This document shows, piece by piece, positions 2,780-54,339 of a DNA stretch of 64,000 bases. The stretch lies in contig CAVVMJ010000006.1 in assembly GCA_963749445.1 (NCBI GenBank), positions 10,979 through 74,978 on the forward strand, given 5' to 3'. The stretch comes from an uncultured bacterium (lineage in GTDB: Bacteria; Patescibacteriota; Doudnabacteria; UBA920). The stretch's first letter is position 1; the number at the start of each line of letters is the position of its first letter. Both the position numbers and the translations under genes were made by a program. The notes under the pieces were generated by a model. It was not told the DNA's origin and searched no databases. It was given only the letters and a program-made list of their open reading frames with translations.

Positions 2780-5041
2780 ATGCGAGTTAAGATCAGAAAA
2801 TATAACCGTGACAAATTAGGGCGATTTAAGGCTGTTCGGCCCATGCGTTTGGATTTTAATTTTGCCAAAAAATTCGCGGTAGCGGTTTTGGTTTTTGGCC
2901 TGATGCTGCAGGGCGGCGGTTTTGCTATATTAAAAACTTCTGCCTATTTTAGCGACAGCGCGACATCTTCCGCCAATACTTTAACCGCCGGGACTTTGCA
3001 GTACGTTTTGTCTGGTTCGGATTTTTCACCGGCGACAATTAAAAAGGGCGAAACATCCGCCCGGGTAGTGGATATTTCCAATACCGGCAGTTTGGGTTTT
3101 AAATATGTAGCCAGCGCGGCCGATTTTGGCGCAGATACGGACTTATGCGATGCGCTGACGTTGCAGGCCGATTTGGCGACTACAACGGTGTACAGCGGAT
3201 TGTTGCAGAATTTTGTCGCCGCCACCACGACTTTTGACAACCTGTCGCCGGATTGGCATTTTACTGTCAGCTTGCCGGCGTCGGCTTCCGATTCTTTGCA
3301 AGACAAATCCTGCGGTTTTAAATTTATTTACAGCGGCTGGCAGGAAAATTTTTCCGGCCCGGCATCGGGTTTTACCGACGTGCAGGAAACTTCCAGCGTC
3401 ATAAATTCCGGGCATTGGGTAACGCCCCAGCCGGGCGATATTGACCCGTCGCCGATTATTGACGCCACCGTGAACCAGGCGAATCCGGCCAATAATTACG
3501 GCAGTATTTGCCACCTGAGCGTCGAGTCGCGAAACACCAACAAGAACCAACGCAGTTTTATCCGTTTTAATTTTAATTTGCCTGTTACCACAACCATCAA
3601 CTCCGCAAGCCTGGATTTGTTCATGAGTTCCGCCCCCGCGAGCTCGCGTACCTACCAATTAAAGCGGGCTTTAAGTTCCTGGGATGAATTGGGTATTACT
3701 TGGGATAACCAGCCGGCATCCGGCACAGTTGTGTCAAGCGCCACGACCGGAACCGCTGACAATCAATTGCTGGCTTGGGATGTTAAGACCGACGTGCAAA
3801 ATTTTGTAACTTCCCCGTCCGACAATTACGGCTGGGTTATCGGCGAAAGCAGCGAAGATGCAGGCGGCACCGGTTTTAACGCTTCCTTTGTCTCCCGCAA
3901 TGCCGCAGCGACCAATCCCGATCATCGGCCGCTGCTGCAAATCAACTTTACCGTTCCTCCGGCCGCTACCGATCATATGGTCATCAACGAAGTTTATCCC
4001 AATATCGGCCCGGGCAAAGGCAACGACCCGCGCGATGAGTGGGTGGAAATTTATAATCCCACTGCCGCGCCCCTGACCATGGCAGACTGGAAAATTTGCG
4101 ATAATACCAGTTGTGACGCTTTGCCGACCACCACTTTGCCTTCGTTAGGCTTTGGGGTAATCATTACCAGCACCTCGCAAGTTACCGGCAATTGGTCAAT
4201 CCCAAGCGGCGCCGCAATTATATATTTGGACAATACCACCATCGGTAACGGGTTGAGCAATACCGGTGATCGCGTGGAATTAAAAGATGCGGGCGGTAAT
4301 TTGGTTGACGCCATGAGTTATGGTACGGACCACACTTATTTTTCCACTTTAGCTGCGCCGCAGAGCGGAAATTCTTTGGCCCGTGTTGTCAAAGGCTATG
4401 ATACGGACAGCGCGGTAGACTGGGTGGAGAGCGCCACGCCCAATCCAGGGACTAATCCGGGTTTAATCGCAAGCGGTGACGGCAGCGAAGTTATCCGTTT
4501 TACTTCGGATGGGATTATGATAGCGGCCAATCAAAGCGATTTGCCTGCGATTGACGCCGGCACGGATCAGGCGCAAAATGCGCCGTCTTTGGACGAACCG
4601 GATGGTTCTTCCGTTTTGCCTGCAGCGGTTTCGGCAGATATGTCGGGATCGGGTGATAATGCGTTGTGTTCGGGAGGCACGCCTTCCGCAGACGATTTAC
4701 CTGTAAGCCCATCGCCAAGCGCTGTTCCTGATACCGCCGGCGGCCAAGGCCAAGATATCGTTGCGCCGCCTGGAGATCCTGTTTCGCCGGCTTCGGACGC
4801 GCCTGATCAAAAAAGCGGTTCAAACACCGGCGATGCAAATAACACGCCGCAAACCGATCAGTCTCCGGCCGTTGAACCTCCGGCGCAGGACATTGTTTCT
4901 CCGGACCCGCCTGCTGTTGTAACGGCATCCCCATCAGCCGAACCTGAGCAAATAATTCTCGCTCCGGCGGCAGTAGAACCCCTGGCCGCACCGGCGCCAG
5001 CACAGCCGGAGCTGCAGACGACTTCGGGAGGAGATGAATAA
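2780..5041 (+). CDS. Large secreted protein with a SipW-cognate signal (LKTSAYFSDSATSSANTLTAGTL), a DNRLRE-like region, a lamin-tail domain and a Pro/Ala-rich C-terminal tail. The true start is probably the internal Met near 2843.
   Basis: Lamin-tail domain signature MVINEVYPN..DEWVEIYNPT..GDRVELKDAGGNLVD. Low-complexity PAxxP tail. Confidence 0.55.
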   Translation: MRVKIRKYNRDKLGRFKAVRPMRLDFNFAKKFAVAVLVFGLMLQGGGFAILKTSAYFSDSATSSANTLTAGTLQYVLSGSDFSPATIKKGETSARVVDISNTGSLGFKYVASAADFGADTDLCDALTLQADLATTTVYSGLLQNFVAATTTFDNLSPDWHFTVSLPASASDSLQDKSCGFKFIYSGWQENFSGPASGFTDVQETSSVINSGHWVTPQPGDIDPSPIIDATVNQANPANNYGSICHLSVESRNTNKNQRSFIRFNFNLPVTTTINSASLDLFMSSAPASSRTYQLKRALSSWDELGITWDNQPASGTVVSSATTGTADNQLLAWDVKTDVQNFVTSPSDNYGWVIGESSEDAGGTGFNASFVSRNAAATNPDHRPLLQINFTVPPAATDHMVINEVYPNIGPGKGNDPRDEWVEIYNPTAAPLTMADWKICDNTSCDALPTTTLPSLGFGVIITSTSQVTGNWSIPSGAAIIYLDNTTIGNGLSNTGDRVELKDAGGNLVDAMSYGTDHTYFSTLAAPQSGNSLARVVKGYDTDSAVDWVESATPNPGTNPGLIASGDGSEVIRFTSDGIMIAANQSDLPAIDAGTDQAQNAPSLDEPDGSSVLPAAVSADMSGSGDNALCSGGTPSADDLPVSPSPSAVPDTAGGQGQDIVAPPGDPVSPASDAPDQKSGSNTGDANNTPQTDQSPAVEPPAQDIVSPDPPAVVTASPSAEPEQIILAPAAVEPLAAPAPAQPELQTTSGGDE

Positions 5042-11246: not shown

Positions 11247-11567
11247 CTGGCGGGTTTGGAACGGTTTGACCAAAAATAAACCGTGGCATAAAATAGGTAA
11301 ACAACAATAACAAATATATGTTATCCACAGACGATATCAAAAAACTGACAGATTATCAAATCGAGGTTTTTAAAGATGTTTTTGCCACACAAAAAAATGG
11401 CTGATCTCCAATATTCCGTGGATTCTTTTGCCAAGGATAAGCGGACCAAAGACCAAGAAATCCCCGTCCCCGGCCGCAGAATTAAGGACGTGGGGAATTG
11501 GATAGACAAAGCCGCGCTCACAAAGTGGGCGTAAGCTTTGAACATTTTTGAACATTAGCGTTAGTTT

Positions 11568-11600
11568 TAAAAACCGCTGCCCCGAGCAGCGGTTTTTTGT
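11568..11600 (+). terminator. Intrinsic terminator AAAACCGCTGCCCCGAGCAGCGGTTTTTTG. A near-identical copy sits at 13616.
   Basis: GC stem followed by a T-run. Both copies are preceded by the identical string ttgaacattagcgttagtttt. Confidence 0.6.
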
Positions 11601-11679
11601 AAACGCGTGCGTGTGTATTATTAAATAGGTGATAGTCGGGGGAGGGCAGGGATTTTTACATTTCAGTATTCAAAAAAAT

Positions 11680-11713
11680 GTTACATTTGCGCGTACGTAC
11701 TCGCAAATGTAAC
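11680..11713. repeat. Palindrome TTACATTTGCGCGTACGTACTCGCAAATGTAA, an operator-like inverted repeat. A degenerate copy sits at 13720-13753.
   Basis: Perfect 11-bp arms around a CGTACGTAC centre. Confidence 0.5.
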
Positions 11714-11744
11714 AAAAAAAGGCTTTCAATAACGATAACAAAAT

Positions 11745-11768
11745 AATGGGTCATGTCCCCATTTGTCC
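11745..11768. repeat. Hairpin repeat AATGGGTCATGTCCCCATTTG. Further copies at 12726-12748 and 13926-13970.
   Basis: Three copies, each 100-250 nt upstream of a toxin-antitoxin cassette. Confidence 0.45.
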
Positions 11769-11874
11769 TATAAAGGTCTTGCCCAAAAAAACCGTTACTT
11801 CGGTAACGGGTTTTTTGTATTTAAAAAATTGGTGACAAATTTATGGGAATACGGGAAAGAAACTTTTGGCAAAA

Positions 11875-11919
11875 GTTGATGGCTTGTGCAAAATGCCAAA
11901 TGTCCAGACTTGACCCCCC
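11875..11919. repeat. About 50-nt repeat GTTGATGGCTTGTGCAAAATGCCAAATGTCCAGACTTGACCCCCC (rep50 copy 1 of 4). Other copies at 12895, 13791 and 14701. Its GTCAAGACTTGACCCC core is REP-like and also forms the terminal repeats of the Y1 transposase.
   Basis: Found by direct sequence comparison. Confidence 0.6.
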
Positions 11920-11994
11920 TTTCCTATCCTTTCCCAAGAAAACAGAGTTTACGCCGGACTTTTCAAAATCGCCATTTTATGATACCATACGGGT

Positions 11995-12276
11995 ATGAAT
12001 ATAGAAGAAATTAAAGTTAAAATTACCCCGATACTTTTAAGGCACGGGGTCAAGCGTGCCGCGGTTTTTGGCAGTGTGGCCAGGGGAGAGGAGCGGCCGG
12101 ACAGCGATGTTGATGTGGTTATAGAAATATCCAGACCGTACGGATTGTTTGAGTTTGTGGAGATAAAGCACGGTATGGAAGATACTTTGGGCAAAAAAGT
12201 TGACTTAGTTGAGTATAGTTCCATTAAACCCAGAATCAAAGATAATATCATCAAAGACCAAGTGCGGATATTATGA
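11995..12276 (+). CDS. Nucleotidyltransferase (MntA-type antitoxin of an MNT/HepT pair)
   Basis: GS..RG....SD.D sequence AAVFGSVARGEERPDSDVDVVI. Confidence 0.7.
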   Translation: MNIEEIKVKITPILLRHGVKRAAVFGSVARGEERPDSDVDVVIEISRPYGLFEFVEIKHGMEDTLGKKVDLVEYSSIKPRIKDNIIKDQVRIL

Positions 12277-12617
12277 TTAATCCGGGCGCGAGAGGATACC
12301 TTGAAGATATTTTGGAAGCTTTGGAAAAAATCCAAAGATATGTCTTTGGTATGTCCCTGGAACAGTTTAGGAATGATGAAAAGACGCAAGATTCAGTTAT
12401 TCGGAATTTTGAAATCATCGGCGAGGCGGTTAAGCGCATTTCAGAGGAATTTAAGAACAGCCACCCCGAAGTTCCATGGCGCTCCGCCGCGGGGATGAGA
12501 GACGCTTTGATTCATGATTATCCTAATATTGTGGCGGATGTTGTCTGGAAAACTGCGGTGGAAGATTTGCCGGTATTTAAAAAACAGATTACCGGATTAC
12601 TGAAGGATAATCCGTAA
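12273..12617 (+). CDS. HepT-like (DUF86) toxin
   Basis: It overlaps the MNT gene by 4 nt. RNFEIIGEAVKRISEEFK..PEVPW..GMRDALIHDY matches the HepT/DUF86 pattern. Confidence 0.7.
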   Translation: MINPGARGYLEDILEALEKIQRYVFGMSLEQFRNDEKTQDSVIRNFEIIGEAVKRISEEFKNSHPEVPWRSAAGMRDALIHDYPNIVADVVWKTAVEDLPVFKKQITGLLKDNP

Positions 12618-12894
12618 GGTTGGCGATTATTGTAAAATATCAAATGTCAAAATTTGACCCCCTGACGTTTAAGATTTGACCCCTGACGATGGGCGGTAAG
12701 ATATCCCGGCAAGCCAAAAGCTAAATAATGGGCCATGTCCCCATTTGCATTTGTCATCTTTGAGCATTAATATCACTTTTAAGAACCGCTTCTTATAGGG
12801 CGGTTTTTTGTTTTTGTCCAATTTTGAAATAACGCGCAGCCGAGCGTAAAGTCAACAAGGGTAATTTAGTGGGGGACGCATTATTTAAAACAAG

Positions 12895-12950
12895 ATGGTA
12901 AAAGCTGATGGCTTGTGCAAAATGTCAAAAATTCGGACTTGGCCCCCTGA
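12895..12950. repeat. rep50 copy 2
   Basis: GCTGATGGCTTGTGCAAAATGTCAAAAATTCGGACTTGGCCCCCTGACC. Confidence 0.55.
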
Positions 12951-12997
12951 CCTTGATACTTCCAGAAGTTCTGCTATAATACCACCAATAAACCTTT

Positions 12998-13288
12998 ATG
13001 AATTTAGAACAAATCAAGAAAAAAGTCAGCCCTGTGCTTCGCAAATACCGAGTGGAATACGCGGGTGTTTTTGGTTCGGTTGCCAGAGGCCAGGCGCGGC
13101 CGGACAGCGACGTGGATCTTTTGGTCAGGTTTGAAAAGGTTCCGAGCTTAGTGCAGTTTATCCGAATGGAAAACGAGCTTAAAGAAACATTGCGGACTAA
13201 AGTTGATGTGGTGGTGCAGGGTTCGGAAAAATTTCTTATTAAGCCCGGCATTGAAAAAGACTTAGCTTTACTTTATGGACAGAGATGA
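12998..13288 (+). CDS. Nucleotidyltransferase (MntA-type antitoxin), a paralog of the 11995 gene
   Basis: GVFGSVARGQARPDSDVDLLV. Confidence 0.7.
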   Translation: MNLEQIKKKVSPVLRKYRVEYAGVFGSVARGQARPDSDVDLLVRFEKVPSLVQFIRMENELKETLRTKVDVVVQGSEKFLIKPGIEKDLALLYGQR

Positions 13289-13598
13289 ACAATACAAACA
13301 GGATATTTTGGAAGCGATTTCCAAAATTGAGCAATCCGCGGCAGACTTGACTTATGAAAGTTTTGTAAACGATGCCGATACCTTTGACGCCTGTGTCAGG
13401 CGCTTGGAGATTATAGGAGAAGCAGTTAAGCGTTTATCCGGCGACATTAAAGACAAGGCACCGGACGTTCCCTGGAAAGAAATCGCGGGCTTTCGGGATA
13501 AAGCGATCCATGATTATGCGAGTTTAAATGCCGCCATTGTATGGGAAACTATCCGCACCGACGTACCGCAACTTAAAGCGGCTTTGTTGAAGCTTTGA
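13275..13598 (+). CDS. HepT-like (DUF86) toxin, a paralog of the 12273 gene
   Basis: RRLEIIGEAVKRLSGDIKDKAPDVPWKEIAGFRDKAIHDY. Confidence 0.7.
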   Translation: MDRDEQYKQDILEAISKIEQSAADLTYESFVNDADTFDACVRRLEIIGEAVKRLSGDIKDKAPDVPWKEIAGFRDKAIHDYASLNAAIVWETIRTDVPQLKAALLKL

Positions 13599-13615
13599 AC
13601 ATTAGCGTTAGTTTT

Positions 13616-13648
13616 AAAAATCGCTGCACCAAGCAGCGGTTTTTTGTA
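13616..13648 (+). terminator. Intrinsic terminator, a copy of the one at 11568
   Basis: AAATCGCTGCACCAAGCAGCGGTTTTTTG. Confidence 0.6.
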
Positions 13649-13790
13649 AAAATGCCGGTTGTTTAATATACGCGAGGTATTTCAGCGGAAAGTGCTCTTC
13701 TTGGGATGTGCAAAATATTGTTACATTTGCGCGTACGTACGCGAAAACGCAACAAAGGGGAAAAAGATTTGTAACGGATTTATTTTGAAA

Positions 13791-13836
13791 GTTGATGGCT
13801 TGTGCAAAAATGTCCAATGTCAAGACTTGACCCTCT
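13791..13836. repeat. rep50 copy 3. Its core contains the perfect palindrome GTCAAGACTTGAC.
   Basis: GTTGATGGCTTGTGCAAAAATGTCCAATGTCAAGACTTGACCCTCTG. Confidence 0.55.
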
Positions 13837-13847
13837 GTTTATTTAAT

Positions 13848-13920
13848 GGCGACAAAGTTAGGCTTAAATTCCACTTTAAGACGTCGCGGTGACCTAAAAA
13901 AGGTTCCTGACACCTTTTTC
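13848..13920. repeat. About 70-nt repeat GGCGACAAAGTTAGGCTTAAATTCCACTTTAAGACGTCGCGGTGACCTAAAAAAGGTTCCTGACACC (rep70 copy 1). Copy 2 is at 14804-14878.
   Basis: Two near-identical copies flank the HigBA cassette. Confidence 0.6.
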
Positions 13921-13985
13921 TTCCTAATGGGTCATGTCCCATTTGTCCTCCTTTGTCCCATTTGTCATTCCTGCTTTTTGCCCAC

Positions 13986-14013
13986 TTGACAGGCATATCT
14001 TATATGATATACT
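13986..14013 (+). promoter_or_regulatory. Promoter TTGACA-N16-TATACT with the TATACTAGTAGTAA extension
   Basis: Shares its extended -10 with the 6447 promoter. It lies 20 nt upstream of the higB-like start. Confidence 0.45.
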
Positions 14014-14032
14014 AGTAGTAAAATAAACACTT

Positions 14033-14398
14033 ATGGACGAATATAAAATTACGTTTTTTTATAATCCGGATACGGGGAAAATTCCGGTTCGGGAGTACTT
14101 GGACGGCATCGCCCAAAAGGAAAGGGCTAAAATTTTAAAGTACATTGAATTTTTAAGGGAACACAAAGGCGTACTTGATGAGCCATATGCCAAGCATATT
14201 CGGGATAAAATCAGGGAATTGCGCGTGGATTTTGGCGGAAACAGGCATCGAGTTTTCTTTTTTACTTTTGTCGGAAAAAATATTATTCTGCTCCACGCTT
14301 TTCTTAAAAAAACCACGGCAACTCCGGAATCGGAAATAGGCAAAGCGTTAAACAATTACCATCAAATTATTAATAACCCAAAGCTTTATGAAAACTAG
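14033..14398 (+). CDS. HigB-like toxin (Gp49/RelE-ParE superfamily)
   Basis: Pattern ..REYLD..KERAKIL..I..L..LRVDFGGN.HRVFF..GKNIILLHAFLKKT..TP..EI, followed by a 3'-overlapping HTH antitoxin gene. Confidence 0.6.
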   Translation: MDEYKITFFYNPDTGKIPVREYLDGIAQKERAKILKYIEFLREHKGVLDEPYAKHIRDKIRELRVDFGGNRHRVFFFTFVGKNIILLHAFLKKTTATPESEIGKALNNYHQIINNPKLYEN

Positions 14399-14687
14399 AA
14401 TAAGTCTAAAAAAATCAATAAGCTTTCAGGCTTACTTAAAAGCCCAGCTTAAAAATCCGCAAGTTAAAAAACATTACGATGAAGCCGGCAAGCGCTTAGA
14501 AATCGCTTATCAAGTGATTCAGTTGCGCAAGGAGGGAGGGGTATCCCAGTCGCAATTGGCGAAAAAACTGGGTACAACGCAAAGTAATGTTGCCCGCATA
14601 GAAGCCGGACAGCAAAATTTTACCGCAGAAACTTTGCAGAAAATCGCAAAAGCATTCCGGCGCGATTTGCGCATTGAATTTGTCTAG
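14388..14687 (+). CDS. XRE-family HTH antitoxin (HigA-like)
   Basis: LRKEGGVSQSQLAKKLGTTQSNVARIE helix-turn-helix. Confidence 0.6.
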   Translation: MKTRISLKKSISFQAYLKAQLKNPQVKKHYDEAGKRLEIAYQVIQLRKEGGVSQSQLAKKLGTTQSNVARIEAGQQNFTAETLQKIAKAFRRDLRIEFV

Positions 14688-14700
14688 AAGCGGTTAAAAA

Positions 14701-14746
14701 GCTGATGATTTATGTAAACTGTTCAATGTCTAGACTTGGCCCCCTA
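14701..14746. repeat. rep50 copy 4 (degenerate)
   Basis: GCTGATGATTTATGTAAACTGTTCAATGTCTAGACTTGGCCCCCTATCGC. Confidence 0.45.
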
Positions 14747-14803
14747 TCGCTTCTCTATGAAAAGAGGTGGCCCACTAGGAAAAGATTCCTGGGTAACTGT
14801 GAT

Positions 14804-14878
14804 GGCGACAAAGTTAGGCTTAAATTTCACTTTAAGACGTCGCGGTAGACCTAAAAAAGGTTCCTGACACCTTTTCTT
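14804..14878. repeat. rep70 copy 2
   Basis: GGCGACAAAGTTAGGCTTAAATTTCACTTTAAGACGTCGCGGTAGACCTAAAAAAGGTTCCTGACACC. Confidence 0.6.
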
Positions 14879-15102
14879 TGTCCAAAAAAAACAGGACCGG
14901 CGTTCCACAGGGGGAACGTCGGTCCGCGAGTTTGCCAGTTATTTGTGCCTGCGTTGGGCGCACCCGCTGGAACGGGGCTAGTAGGAGGCGACATACAGCG
15001 TCCCTCCGCTGACAGCCAGGTAAATGTTGTCGGAGAGCCGGGCAGTGCCCAGGTCAACTTGGCTCATTGCGCCGGCTGATAATGAGATACGATATACGAT
15101 AC

Positions 15103-16186
15103 GGGGTCAAGTCTATATTCTTGACAAAATATATTTGAGTTGATATTGTTTGATTATGGCCAGACCATTAAGAATAGAATACGAAGGTGCTTTTTATCAT
15201 GTTATTAATCGTGGTCTGGAACGCCGGGAAATATTCCGCCAGCCTAAAGACTACGAATATTTTTTAGGGCTGCTCGAATATATATACGAGAAATACGGAG
15301 TTATCGTTTACGCCTTTTGCCTAATGCCTAATCACTACCATCTATACCTCCAAACTCCCCAGGGAAACTTAAGCAAAGCCATGCGCCAGTTAGATGGCAA
15401 CCATACTCAGAAATTTAATAAACGCTATAAGAGAGTAGGCCCGCTGTTTCAAGGGCGTTACAAGGCAGTTTTAGTAGACAGCGACAGTTATTCCCTGCAA
15501 TTGGCCAAATATATCCATTTAAATCCTGTCAAAGCCAAACTAATACAAAAGCCCGAAGATTATCAACATTCCAGCTACTCCTCATATATCGGTAAAACCA
15601 AAGCCCCGATATTTCTTAACACTAAATGGGTGCTTTCTCAATACGCCAAGTCAAAAGGTAAAGCTGTTAAAGAGTTAAAAAAGCATACACTCGAAGCCCA
15701 AGAGGAAGATTGGGAGCCCGAAAAAGATACTTTTAAGAGCTTGATTTTAGGTGGCAGTGATTTTGTTAACCAAATACAGGAAGAATTTTTACAGGGAAAA
15801 GAAAATTTTGAAATTCCTAAGCTTAAAGCTGTTCAAAAAGTTTTATCCGCGCATGAAATAATTGCTAAAATTGACAGGCTTAAATTGGGTGAAAATGACA
15901 AGACCAAAATTATTGTTTACGCGTTAAAGAGGTACAGTCCGTTGACCTTAAAAGAGATAGGGGAGCAGTTTAATAATTTGCATTATTCCGCTGTCGCACA
16001 GATACTCATCCGACTGCAAAAGAAATTATCTACAGATAAACAGCTTGCAAAAACTGTCATTGAGGTTGATAAACTGTTTAACAATAAGTTAAAAATATAG
16101 ACTTGACCCCATATTCATATTCAAAAACTGTCATTGAGGTTGATAAACTGTTTAATAAGTTAAAAATATAGACTTGACCCCATATT
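15103..16186 (+). mobile_element. IS200-like / REP-associated-type Y1 (HuH) transposase element. Left terminal repeat GGGGTCAAGTCTATA at 15103-15117, right terminal repeat TATAGACTTGACCCC at 16096-16110, and a 62-67-nt tandem duplication of the right end (16050-16116 and 16125-16186).
   Basis: The terminal repeats are exact reverse complements of each other. The same core occurs in the rep50 copies scattered upstream. Confidence 0.6.
15150..16100 (+). CDS. Y1 HuH transposase (IS200/IS605-type or REP-associated tyrosine-transposase-like) with a roughly 170-aa C-terminal extension
   Basis: YHVINRG..ERREIF..DYEYFL..YAFCLMPNHYHLYL (the HuH motif) ..GPLFQGRYKAVLV..YIHLNPVKA..HSSYSSY. Confidence 0.7.
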   Translation: MIMARPLRIEYEGAFYHVINRGLERREIFRQPKDYEYFLGLLEYIYEKYGVIVYAFCLMPNHYHLYLQTPQGNLSKAMRQLDGNHTQKFNKRYKRVGPLFQGRYKAVLVDSDSYSLQLAKYIHLNPVKAKLIQKPEDYQHSSYSSYIGKTKAPIFLNTKWVLSQYAKSKGKAVKELKKHTLEAQEEDWEPEKDTFKSLILGGSDFVNQIQEEFLQGKENFEIPKLKAVQKVLSAHEIIAKIDRLKLGENDKTKIIVYALKRYSPLTLKEIGEQFNNLHYSAVAQILIRLQKKLSTDKQLAKTVIEVDKLFNNKLKI

Positions 16187-16354
16187 GACTATAACCGGCG
16201 GGGGCGGATAAATCAGCTTTAAACTTTTCCCGCCAAAATTTAAATTTAAGTTTTAGCGGAAAATGTGCTAAAATATAATCCCTATTGAATAGGGATTTAA
16301 ATATTTTGATGATATTTTTGGCTTAAGTAAAAGTAATTTTAAATTGAGGGGTTA

Positions 16355-16383
16355 TTGACAAAACTGTTTTAAAGTAGTATAAT
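16355..16383 (+). promoter_or_regulatory. Strong consensus promoter TTGACA-N17-TATAAT
   Basis: Read from the sequence; about 290 nt upstream of the 16671 gene. Confidence 0.4.
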
Positions 16384-16670: not shown

Positions 16671-17429
16671 TTGCAAGGGAGTATTCAAATGATGAAGACG
16701 TTTTCCCTCGCGGTGCTCACCGCGATTCTCGCGCTGGCTGTTATGCCAAGCGCTTCCGCTCAGGGCTTCAGCGCTGTGACGCTGGACGCTTCGGCCGTAA
16801 GTTCTCACGGCGCGTGCCTGGTCGGGCAGATTGTGCCCAAGCCTGGCGCGTCAGTGGCAGGGGCCACACCGTATACGCAATTCGTTTACAACCCGGACTC
16901 GCCGCCGACGCCGAGTAATGGCGTAGGCGCCCCGTATGTCAGTCAATATGCACCCTCCGACGGGACAGGCCCGGTCGTGATGGATGTGGTTTCTTGCATC
17001 GGTCCGATTTTGCCAACGACCACGTATTATTTCAAGCTGACGGGCTCAACTAATTTCTACGTGGCCGGCAACGTGGTGACGTTCACAACCCTCGATGAGG
17101 GAGCTCCCTTCATCGATCCGGGATATGGCACCAAGCCCATCCCCGGATCCGGCAATCTCAAGGGTTGCGCGGGCTGTCAGGTCGCCGTGGTCGGGGAGAA
17201 CTTTGGGCCCTTGACCCAAGTTTACTTCAACGACACGCCGATCGATCCTAGCCTCGTATATGTCACCTTTGACCGACTACTCACCTTCCAACTTCCCGAC
17301 CGGCTTCCAGTCGGCTCGGTGTGGACCGTCCGGGTCGTGAACAACGGCCTAAGGTCAAACAGCGTCCCGCTCGTGGTCATCCCGGCGTCGGTCGCAAACG
17401 CGACCCCGAACCCCCCGAACACGAGGTGA
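16671..17429 (+). CDS. Secreted protein with a signal peptide and a C-terminal IPT/TIG-like domain. GC-rich relative to its flanks.
   Basis: Signal LAVLTAILALAVMPSASAQG. C-terminal VAVVGENFGP..VYFNDTPI..VTFDRLLTFQLP..VWTVRVVNNGLRSNSVPLVV. Confidence 0.45.
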   Translation: MQGSIQMMKTFSLAVLTAILALAVMPSASAQGFSAVTLDASAVSSHGACLVGQIVPKPGASVAGATPYTQFVYNPDSPPTPSNGVGAPYVSQYAPSDGTGPVVMDVVSCIGPILPTTTYYFKLTGSTNFYVAGNVVTFTTLDEGAPFIDPGYGTKPIPGSGNLKGCAGCQVAVVGENFGPLTQVYFNDTPIDPSLVYVTFDRLLTFQLPDRLPVGSVWTVRVVNNGLRSNSVPLVVIPASVANATPNPPNTR

Positions 17430-22489: not shown

Positions 22490-22996
22490 ATGCACAGAAA
22501 CAAAATTATGATCAAAAAATATTGGGCGCCCCTGCTAATTCTGGTTTTGCTGGTTATTATCACAGTCGCGGCCAAAGTCCTGCCCAAGCGGCAAGCTGTG
22601 CCCAATTCTGCTTCCAAGCCTTCGGCCAGTTCTCAAGCCCAAACCCCTCCCCCGATGCCCCAGGTGGCGGCTGTGCCTCCGGCCAAGGTGCCGCCGGGCC
22701 TGCCTGCCAACCTGCCCTGGGAAAAAGGCGCCACTATCCTTCAGAACTTCACGGCCAAAGACCCTGTCTCCGGCAAAACCCAGTCCACGCGGGAGTACGT
22801 TAGCGCCAAGAGCCTGGATGACAATTTTAGCGTTTACCAAAAGTATCTAAAGGATAACGGCTGGACCGTGGTCTCCGGCATTAGCCAGCCCACCATCAAG
22901 AACCTTTCCGCCGCCAAAGCCGGTGCCCGCCTGGACGTGACCATATCCAAAACCCCGGACAACAAAGTTACGGTCATTGTCAGCTACGTGGATTAA
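22490..22996 (+). CDS. Membrane-anchored hypothetical protein with a Pro/Ala-rich linker
   Basis: N-terminal TM helix ILVLLVIITVAA. No recognisable domain. Confidence 0.35.
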   Translation: MHRNKIMIKKYWAPLLILVLLVIITVAAKVLPKRQAVPNSASKPSASSQAQTPPPMPQVAAVPPAKVPPGLPANLPWEKGATILQNFTAKDPVSGKTQSTREYVSAKSLDDNFSVYQKYLKDNGWTVVSGISQPTIKNLSAAKAGARLDVTISKTPDNKVTVIVSYVD

Positions 22997-53643: not shown

Positions 53644-54339
53644 ATGATATACCATCCAAAAACCAATCTTGAAAAATTTGGATTTAAAATCTACAATTTG
53701 CTTGTGGAAAACTTTCCGCAAACTTTCTACGTCGGCGGCATGGTAAGAGATCTTCTGCTGCGCAAAACCGTAACCGATATTGACATCGCGACAGAGGCCG
53801 GGCCCGAACAGGTGGCCGGCCTTTTGTCGTCTGCCGGCGTTTCCGCTGACCGGGCGCACCAAAATTTTGGAATCATTATTGCGAAAAATTCCAAACACAA
53901 AATCGAAATCGCAACCTTTCGTCGCGACTCCTACGGCAAAACGCGCTATCCTAAAGTAACTTTTGTCAAAAATCCCAAAACCGACAGCATGCGGCGCGAC
54001 TTTACCGTAAATGCCTTATACTTTAGCCCAAAAAACGGCAAAATCCTTGATTTCCACGGGGGATTGAAAGATTTAAAATTGAAAAATTTAAAATTCATCG
54101 GCGATCCGGCTAAGCGAATCAAAGAAGACCCGCTAAGGATAATCAGGGCAATCCGCTTCGCCCTGCAATTAAATTTTAAATTTGAAAATAAAACCAAGCT
54201 TGGCCTGGAAAAAAACTTTGGGATGATAAACCAGTTGACTGCCGCGCGGGTCAAGTCGGAATTGGACAAAATTTTAGATACCCGGAAAAAACAAATCGCC
54301 CGCGCGGTCATCAATCATAAAAAATTTCTTGACAAATAA
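53644..54339 (+). CDS. tRNA nucleotidyltransferase (CCA-adding enzyme or poly(A) polymerase family, short form)
   Basis: FYVGGMVRDLLL..DIDIAT and RRDFTVNALY head-domain motifs. Confidence 0.65.
   Translation: MIYHPKTNLEKFGFKIYNLLVENFPQTFYVGGMVRDLLLRKTVTDIDIATEAGPEQVAGLLSSAGVSADRAHQNFGIIIAKNSKHKIEIATFRRDSYGKTRYPKVTFVKNPKTDSMRRDFTVNALYFSPKNGKILDFHGGLKDLKLKNLKFIGDPAKRIKEDPLRIIRAIRFALQLNFKFENKTKLGLEKNFGMINQLTAARVKSELDKILDTRKKQIARAVINHKKFLDK

Follow-up and report, generated by a model that had tools for sequence, protein, structure and literature searches.

The 64-kb stretch of DNA presented above (the window, to which the counts of genes and solo ends refer unless other contigs are named) very probably holds a TIRtron at ~15098-16115. 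This is a single TIRYT transposase gene between terminal inverted repeats (TIRs) of 24-27 nt, and in this reading the rep50 repeats upstream of it and a duplicate downstream are truncated right ends of such elements. The class is already known. TIRYT genes lying between long TIRs that share the motif GGGGWSAS were named TIRtrons by Di Nocera, De Gregorio and Rocco (BMC Genomics 14:522, 2013; PMC3733652), and in some genomes their repeats form moderately abundant single, dimeric or grouped copies. In the classification of Quentin et al. (BMC Genomics 19:475, 2018; PMC6006769), TIRYT corresponds to subclass 2.1 of TnpA_REP, which comprises long proteins with a C-terminal helix-turn-helix (HTH) domain related to Bac_DnaA_C, HTH_23 or HTH_28 and no REPs nearby, and is the largest RAYT-like subclass, present in 14.9% of the strains surveyed. 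The locus is a further example of this class, in a host that appears to be of the Patescibacteria/Candidate Phyla Radiation (CPR) type, judged from the names of homologues only. An earlier note had likened it to a REP-associated tyrosine transposase (RAYT) amid a cloud of REP (repetitive extragenic palindromic) and REPIN repeats. The RAYT-like protein was borne out by its best structural match (4er8), its HUH motif and its tyrosine; the REP/REPIN part was not, the repeats forming no stable hairpin and the upstream copies containing coding relics.

The transposase

15156..16100, plus strand: TIRYT gene, 314 aa, with a Y1 HUH domain at residues ~1-145, a linker and a predicted DnaA-domain-IV-like HTH at ~228-312 (15837-16091); the TAG stop lies inside the right repeat
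15333-15341 (H60/H62), 15510-15512 (Tyr119) and 15522-15524 (Asn123), plus strand: catalytic codons, from the family alignment

The open reading frame (ORF) reported earlier stood; its start was moved from TTG 15150 to ATG 15156, the most likely site, because the family alignment begins MARPLRIEY in all homologues. This alignment of 45 family members also supplied the profile for a search of the PDB, in which the single sequence had been uninformative. Pfam gives Y1_Tnp at 1.3e-15 and a weak Bac_DnaA_C match at residues 251-281 (E = 0.011), the latter being matched individually by 13 of the 45 family members, down to 2.6e-5. On the question of IS200 or RAYT, raised in the earlier note, the protein is closer to RAYTs: with NCBIfam REP_Tyr_transpos (NF047646) it reaches 79.6 bits, just under the cutoff of 80, and with transpos_IS200 (NF033573) 20 bits, the cutoff being 55. 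With the profile, E. coli TnpA_REP (4er8) is the first PDB match, followed by several DnaA chains over residues ~215-308. An AlphaFold model (pLDDT 87.8) likewise has 4er8 as its best Foldseek match (E 2.5e-7, TMt 0.72), then IS200/IS608/ISDra2 transposases (E 3e-5 to 1e-3), and its C-terminal domain matches the DNA-binding domain of M. tuberculosis DnaA (3pvp, TMt 0.72).

The catalytic residues of TnpA_REP, H59, H61, Y115 and N119 (PMC3479197), align with H60, H62, Y119 and N123 here, in keeping with the RAYT-type motifs, HUH and a catalytic Tyr in a YIxxNP helix. Residues H60, Y61, H62, Y119, H121 and N123 are invariant in the 45 homologues, and the C-terminal third is conserved too. The tyrosine after the HYH motif, on which the earlier note had made its reading depend, is thus present (Tyr119), and from sequence and model the enzyme looks intact and RAYT-like. 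The C-terminal extension is predicted to be a linker plus a DnaA-domain-IV-like HTH, the very fold that had been proposed for it, on the evidence of Pfam, the profile search and the Foldseek match. A length about twice that of the usual RAYT, also correctly noted before, is the norm for TIRYTs in the two surveys, as is the C-terminal HTH (PMC3733652, PMC6006769). More than 7,000 database proteins match, mostly of ~310 aa and over their full length. The few matches whose names give a source are labelled Patescibacteria/CPR, Omnitrophica or Methylomirabilales, and a scan of reference genomes found relatives in many further phyla, at no more than 47% identity among the matches listed. No second TIRYT gene was found in the 64-kb window.

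Elements of the IS200/IS605 group (IS608 and ISDra2 TnpA) share the catalytic fold and the small one-gene layout. Such elements have no TIRs, carry a different subterminal hairpin at each end, encode a TnpA of ~130-150 aa without an HTH, and insert 3' of a fixed tetra- or pentanucleotide with no target duplication. The present element differs from them in its TIRs, in having no right-end hairpin and in its 314-aa protein with an HTH.

The ends of the element

Loci and contigs carrying homologues or end copies are labelled L001-L221; L216-L221 are contigs of close strains, in which the element is 98.5-99.5% identical.

15099..15125, plus strand: left TIR, ATAC-GGGGTCAAGTCT-ATATTCTTGAC, with the exact core at 15103-15117; the same end occurs in homologues in unrelated contexts and fits the family TIR GGGGTCA[G/A]GTCT..., ~24-26 nt
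16088..16115, plus strand: right TIR, ...AATATAGACTTGACCCC-ATATT
16122..16192, plus strand: second right-end copy, comprising ~16 terminal codons and the repeat and lying 71-74 nt past the first; absent or different in L216, L217, L220 and L221
15086..15102, plus strand: short tandem repeat GATAC-GATATAC-GATAC, directly adjoining the left end; the final ATAC (4 nt) is the outer part of the inverted repeat
15121..15149, plus strand: promoter-like site TTGACA-17-TATTGT, TG-extended, a consensus match only, with the -35 hexamer inside the left repeat

The gene is bounded, as first noticed, by a 15-nt repeat, GGGGTCAAGTCTATA (15103-15117), and its exact reverse complement, TATAGACTTGACCCC (16096-16110). 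At 89% identity the inverted repeat reaches 27 nt (15099-15125 / 16088-16114), and it can be divided into an outer part, GGGGTCAAGTCT, and an inner part, ATATTCTTGACAA. Comparison with other copies places the limits of the element at ~15098-16115, a few nt beyond the G/C runs, for a length of ~1.02 kb. On the right, the shared sequence stops after CCCCATATT in all five right-flank contexts of near-identical copies; on the left, homology with the uninterrupted copy of the neighbouring segment B in L217 stops at ~15085. The GATAC units number two in the close strains versus about three in the window. In the window and in L001 and L094 the GGGG is preceded by GAYAC, which may be part of the repeat, since other lineages have other 3-5 nt on both sides.

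The tandem duplication of the right end, also seen earlier, consists of two stretches ~71 nt away from their originals, 16048-16084 versus 16122-16158 (97% identical) and 16083-16115 versus 16154-16186 (100%), with a 3-nt deletion, and it re-encodes ...KTVIEVDKLF-NKLKI. Short tandem duplications also lie directly outside both tips, GATAC two to three times on the left (strain-variable) and ATATTC twice on the right (16111-16122), and in L084 (1500-1570) the right end is followed by a CCCC(C)TAATGG motif (CCCCTAATGG) repeated five times. No explanation so far fits these duplications. A perfect sigma-70 consensus, TTGACA-17-TATAAT (12/12), lies at 16355-16383, ~240 nt past the element and ahead of ORF 16671-17429, for which Pfam gave no match.

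The ends are conserved across the family. In a set of 124 loci with a full-length homologue, drawn from GTDB genomes, metagenomes and close relatives, a TIR anchored at GGTCR was found in 100, in many phyla, giving 70 unique ends. The left tip lies ~45-105 nt before the ATG in most loci, and the right tip usually within ~20 nt of the stop. Lineages agree at TIR positions 1-10 (GGTCAGGTCT) and differ at positions 11-22, where the left and right ends of one element nonetheless match at 0.70-0.99, a value that drops to ~0.25-0.3, the background, past position 25. The majority sequence at positions 17-22 across the family is TTGACA. The repeats have a 7-nt periodicity (lag-7 autocorrelation 0.387 vs 0.265 in shuffles), as in TCGACAT-TCGACAT, TAAAGAA-TAAAGAA and TTAATTA-TTAATTA, and the C-terminal peptide of the family, ...MSNVKT before the stop, is the right repeat read as codons (ATG TCA AAT GTC AAG ACT TGA).

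These properties agree with the TIRtrons of subgroup 2.1.2 as described (PMC3733652, PMC6006769): a RAYT-like protein of ~300 aa in which a Y1 HUH domain is joined to a C-terminal HTH of the Bac_DnaA_C type, long TIRs starting GGGG[AT][CG]A[CG], a right repeat that overlaps or closely follows the 3' end of the gene, and additional single, paired or grouped repeat copies in some genomes. The tip here, GGGGTCAA, matches the published GGGGWSAS at seven of eight positions, its last base being A rather than S; in the 70 unique ends anchored at GGTCR, base 8 is G in 66%. Besides the apparent host, three features reported here, namely coding relics in solo copies, a lineage-specific inner repeat with 7-nt periodicity, and strain polymorphism, were not found mentioned in the available text of the TIRtron papers.

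Solo right ends and the toxin-antitoxin island

The core GACTTGACCCC, sought in the whole window with at most one mismatch, occurs nine times against 0.86 expected, a number reached in none of 100 shuffles. Eight of the nine matches lie within 11907-16181, and six are 0.4-3.2 kb upstream of the element; the ninth, at 54247, was set aside as chance because it falls inside a CCA-adding-enzyme-like ORF. The rep50 family is real, with 52-nt copies at 11867, 12611, 12896, 13784 and 14693, a few nt off the positions first reported, and so are two extra cores, at 12651 and 12673. The corresponding solo right ends (RE1-RE5) and the toxin-antitoxin (TA) cassettes between them are as follows.

11848..11918, plus strand: RE1, solo right end; relic codons NTGKKLLAKVDGLCKMPNVQT with stop, plus the right repeat
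12604..12662, plus strand: RE2, solo right end, RIIRKVGDYCKISNVK..., beginning at the stop of the first HepT gene; contains the partly palindromic GTCAAAATTTGAC
12667..12683, plus strand: tip-only tandem copy of RE2, GATTTGACCCC-TGACG
12889..12947, plus strand: RE3, solo right end, NKMVKADGLCKMSKIRT with stop; 51 nt upstream of the second MNT gene and 85% identical to RE1
13764..13835, plus strand: RE4, solo right end; ...FILKVDGLCK, a frameshift, then MSNVKT and stop; contains the 13-nt palindrome GTCAAGACTTGAC
14693..14744, plus strand: RE5, solo right end, degenerate; 6 nt past the stop of the HTH antitoxin gene
11995..14687, plus strand: three TA cassettes between solo right ends, MNT/HepT at 11995-12617 and 12998-13598, and Gp49 (HigB-like)/HTH_3 at 14033-14687
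14842..15085, minus strand: segment B, which duplicates the 3' end of a gene on the minus strand; abuts the left side of the element

In tblastn, the rep50 copies encode the last 13-21 TIRYT residues, ...KVDGLCKM(P/S)NV(Q/K)T followed by the stop, and a weaker relic of RE4 may reach back to ~13700. All solo copies align with the 3' ends of intact TIRYT genes; the 3' end of the homologue in L086 (60% identical), GTTGATGGGTTATGCAAAATGTAAAATGTCAAGACTTGACCCC, is nearly identical to window 11875-11917. Because they encode TIRYT C-termini and align with intact 3' ends, the rep50 repeats are best read, by these comparisons, as solo 5'-truncated right ends of related TIRtrons and not as REPs. Their inner-repeat type is TGTCNAA-TGTCNAG, versus GTCAAGA-ATATAGA at the left end of the intact element. 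They all have one orientation and lie within 3.3 kb upstream of the element; no genuine end copies were found in the other ~58 kb of the window. RE1 and RE3 have the downstream MNT gene as a common flank, and RE4 and RE5 a 77-nt repeat (D4); the array therefore derives in part from segmental duplication rather than dispersal. The length of such relics varies elsewhere, from 34 nt in L221 to ~140 nt in L136, where the relic lies beside an ORF that is IS3-like as read from its translation; L133 also has solo ends. A reading of the solo ends as one discrete module of ~60 nt is weakened by these two extremes.

In the single-strand DNA folding test, both ends and five upstream copies were compared with 200 shuffles. 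For the left end the result is a weak hairpin of 6 bp (-4.1 kcal/mol, z -1.7), equalled by 17 of the 200 shuffles; the right end (z ~-1.5, an unrelated stem) and the upstream copies (z ~-1.1 to +1.8) fold no better than shuffles. The hairpins once envisaged for the terminal repeats are thus reduced to a weak left-end stem. No GTAG-type tag occurs at the ends or the upstream copies, and at its gathering threshold Rfam found four tRNAs only in the window, none within 11-17 kb.

Copies without a gene were sought in metagenomes with the pattern AANNTNNAGACTTGACCCC (15 fixed bases) in a very large collection. At least 120 loci were found, and 21 of 184 tips adjoin a TIRYT gene among the matches listed. 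By a rough estimate some of the single matches may be random; the gene-less inverted pairs, at least 26 among the matches listed and 42-241 bp long, are not. These pairs are miniature derivatives, in line with the repeat families of Di Nocera et al. The earlier idea of a gene accompanied by copies of its ends therefore holds at the family level, in these 26 or more pairs, though not as REPs, and it is not visible in the window. The miniatures consist of a left plus a right repeat only, some are near-perfect long palindromes, and among the listed metagenome contigs with this tip they are frequent: L105 1890-1949, 2015-2081 and 2803-2862, L106 8778-8834, L113 2973-3019, L173 4763-4812, L209 4871-4920, and further ones in L119 and L202. 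The gene-less metagenome ends follow ORFs of all sizes, from 46 to 1226 aa.

Several other repeats are interspersed in the island. A 25-nt imperfect palindrome (D8, AAATAATGGGTCATGTCCCCATTTG) occurs at 11741-11765, 12723-12747 and 13922-13946, and its centre, GGGTCA|TGtCCCC, resembles the left tip fused to the right tip, i.e., an element without its interior. D8 is also present in L148 (~1160-1180), ~30 nt before a solo right end. A near-perfect palindrome of 36 nt (D9, TGTTACATTTGCGCGTAC/GTACTCGCAAATGTAACA) lies upstream of RE1 and RE4 in two copies 2 kb apart (11679-11714 and 13718-13755); a relic of the TIRYT HTH region, longer than the others, may overlap the second copy (E 0.03 in tblastn, a weak match). 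D4 follows RE4 and RE5 (13846-13922, 14802-14878), and its 3' half, TAGACCTAAAAAAGGTTCCTGACACCTTTTCTTTG, recurs at several close-strain junctions (L216 ~370-410 and 3403-3439, L217 1906-1942, L219 1610-1645), in L216 and L217 directly after the right flank of the element. A terminator-like module, TTTGAACATTAGCGTTAGTTTTAAAAACCGCTGC...GCAGCGGTTTTTTGTAAA, follows two different genes at 11547-11603 and 13594-13650 (95% identical) and is also found at 12759-12815. Read from these repeats, the island is a mosaic in which intergenic modules recur. In L216, a paralogue (5-283) 76% identical to the window gene 22673-22952, which lies ~11 kb downstream of the array, precedes the TA array; the left border of the island is therefore strain-variable as well.

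In three relatives of CPR type the element lies in or beside polymorphic-toxin loci (L001 1-8039; L086 438-5722; L094 1-5849 and 6991-7572) that contain SpvB/RHS/YD-shell genes, RHS fragments accompanied by small ORFs, and cassettes for EndoU toxins, and the family may prefer, or be tolerated in, variable toxin regions. Past the right end of the 85%-identical element in L001, 10969-11262 encodes, by eye, the C-terminal ~97 aa of a UDP-glucose 4-epimerase-like protein whose N-terminus is missing, which suggests insertion with loss of the upstream part. Pfam, run on the neighbouring ORFs of L086, L136 and L217, gave a single sub-threshold match, to Peptidase_C58 (21.3 bits against a cutoff of 23), in an ORF of L136.

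Mobility and competing explanations

The family looks recently mobile, to judge from its copies. L084 and L085 carry an element 99.9% identical over 1005 nt, with homology beginning at the repeat tip and unrelated left flanks; these relatives are ~70% identical to the present element. The same ends bound the elements of L001 and L094 (85% and 81% identical in protein), which lie in different gene contexts, and among copies at least 98.5% identical there are five right-flank contexts. After ...GACTTGACCCCATATT the window reads CATATT and then the right-end copy. In L216 and L217, CATATT leads into another copy of window 14842-15092, extended in L217 into an ORF of at least 120 aa. L220 continues with other sequence up to a different right end, and in L221 a right-end copy of 34 nt comes after 18 nt. 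In L219 four more right ends of several subfamilies follow within 650 nt, and after them comes a truncated second copy of the element, from position 15571; a tRNA suspected beside the L219 element was not found by ARAGORN. L216 is without window 12665-13806, exactly one right-end-bounded cassette unit, and the junction lies inside a right end, where its allele of RE2 is joined to the right flank of RE4.

Several observations weigh against a mobile TIRtron at this locus or against parts of its proposed working. The left flank is the same in L216-L218, and this copy may therefore be fixed, its right-side variation having arisen through recombination between right ends. No direct duplication of a target site is seen at the element, and among the strains compared there is no empty site. 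A 7-nt periodicity is unexpected for an HTH that contacts one face of a duplex, and Quentin et al. note that the TIR is unlike a DnaA box (PMC6006769). What is proposed below on cleavage, on the strand that is cut and on the HTH is drawn from sequence and model, no experiment on any TIRYT having been found in the literature searched, in which two papers use the term.

The first of these points leads to the view that the TIRYT is fixed and no longer mobile, whether domesticated or decaying, and that the strain differences stem solely from homologous recombination among right-end direct repeats. One copy in 64 kb, the identical left flank, a P0022 homologue in the same neighbourhood at the 8 places listed from 21 contigs, and the position of the L216 indel junction inside a right end, as expected of unequal crossing-over, would all agree with it. 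We hold it rather unlikely, given that the ORF and both ends are intact and no catalytic residue is missing, that a 70%-identical relative has near-identical (99.9%) copies between unrelated flanks, that L219 has a second, truncated copy of the same element ~650 nt downstream, and that the contigs of L220 and L221 break off where the element ends, a usual effect of repeated sequence. A separate reading, distinctly unlikely, has copying from the right end, or enzyme-driven right-end recombination, leave piled-up 5'-truncated ends of 34 to ~140 nt (here and in L133, L136, L219 and L221), with the TA cassettes shuffled as right-end-to-right-end units and not by passive decay.

A REP is an imperfect palindrome of 20-40 nt that forms a stable hairpin and has a 5' GTAG-type tetranucleotide, and REPs are numerous and scattered through the extragenic DNA of a whole genome. 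RAYT/REPtrons, with E. coli TnpA_REP (4er8) and the Pseudomonas RAYTs with REPINs as examples, provide the closest solved structure and the closest sequence model, share the active site of HUH, Tyr and Asn, and have a gene bracketed by inverted copies of the presumed substrate; inverted doublets without a gene occur at the TIRYT family level too. A domesticated single-copy RAYT that disperses short palindromic REPs, among them the upstream repeats, would be compatible with the RAYT-like protein (NCBIfam, profile and fold), with the partly palindromic core in RE4 (GTCAAGACTTGAC) and RE2 (GTCAAAATTTGAC), with the many gene-less metagenome copies (21 of 184 tips beside a gene and 26 REPIN-like pairs among the matches listed) and with the repeat families that Di Nocera et al. 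report for some TIRYTs (PMC3733652). It is very unlikely all the same. The ends and upstream copies lack stable hairpins and GTAG-type tags, the copies are of variable length and carry relic coding sequence, they keep to a single orientation within 3.3 kb upstream with some flanks shared and none elsewhere in the window, and the 15-base metagenome pattern may include chance single matches. Unlike a RAYT/REPtron, moreover, the system has a protein twice as long with a double-strand-type HTH added, gives no sign of hundreds of dispersed copies in the 64-kb window, and bears signs of whole-element movement.

The cassettes recall an integron, and it could be supposed that the right ends are recombination sites at which the HUH enzyme inserts and excises TA cassettes beside its own gene. 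Three co-oriented TA cassettes, each between co-oriented right ends, do lie beside the TIRYT gene; one right-end-bounded unit present here is missing in L216; and in L086 further copies of the end surround a two-gene unit next to the TIRtron. An integron array consists of an IntI tyrosine recombinase and structured attC sites (R/L boxes) after each cassette, and Pfam found no integrase among the six cassette ORFs and four flanking ORFs. An attC-like nature of the repeats was set aside, since they align to gene 3' ends and since metagenome gene-less ends follow ORFs of all sizes, not specifically small cassettes. RE1/RE3 and RE4/RE5 share flanks as duplications do, the ~650 nt that hold four more right ends and a truncated copy in L219 leave too little space for cassettes, and the indel junction fits ordinary homologous recombination. 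This explanation is highly improbable.

For the TIRtron, which we prefer, the following working is proposed. The HUH domain would recognise and cut the conserved outer part of each end (GGGGTCA[A/G]GTCT), and the C-terminal HTH would bind the lineage-specific inner repeat, which would make the transposase specific for its own ends. The left repeat may also provide the gene with the -35 box of its promoter. The element would move as a unit of ~1 kb, as is shown for its relatives. The relics would form where right ends are truncated, recombine or are copied abortively, and they would accumulate in the TA island, partly via segmental duplication. The solo ends are read as relics prone to recombination, not as REPs.

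The locus and its strain variants form a compact natural test case, with an intact 1-kb element and near-identical copies at different junctions, to whose value the 99.9%-identical copies of the relatives in different flanks add. The question that can be addressed with it is how inverted repeats and an HTH of the duplex type are used by an HUH nuclease that acts on single strands. For annotation, the locus is a warning that 'REP-like' repeats beside such genes can be truncated element ends with relic codons.

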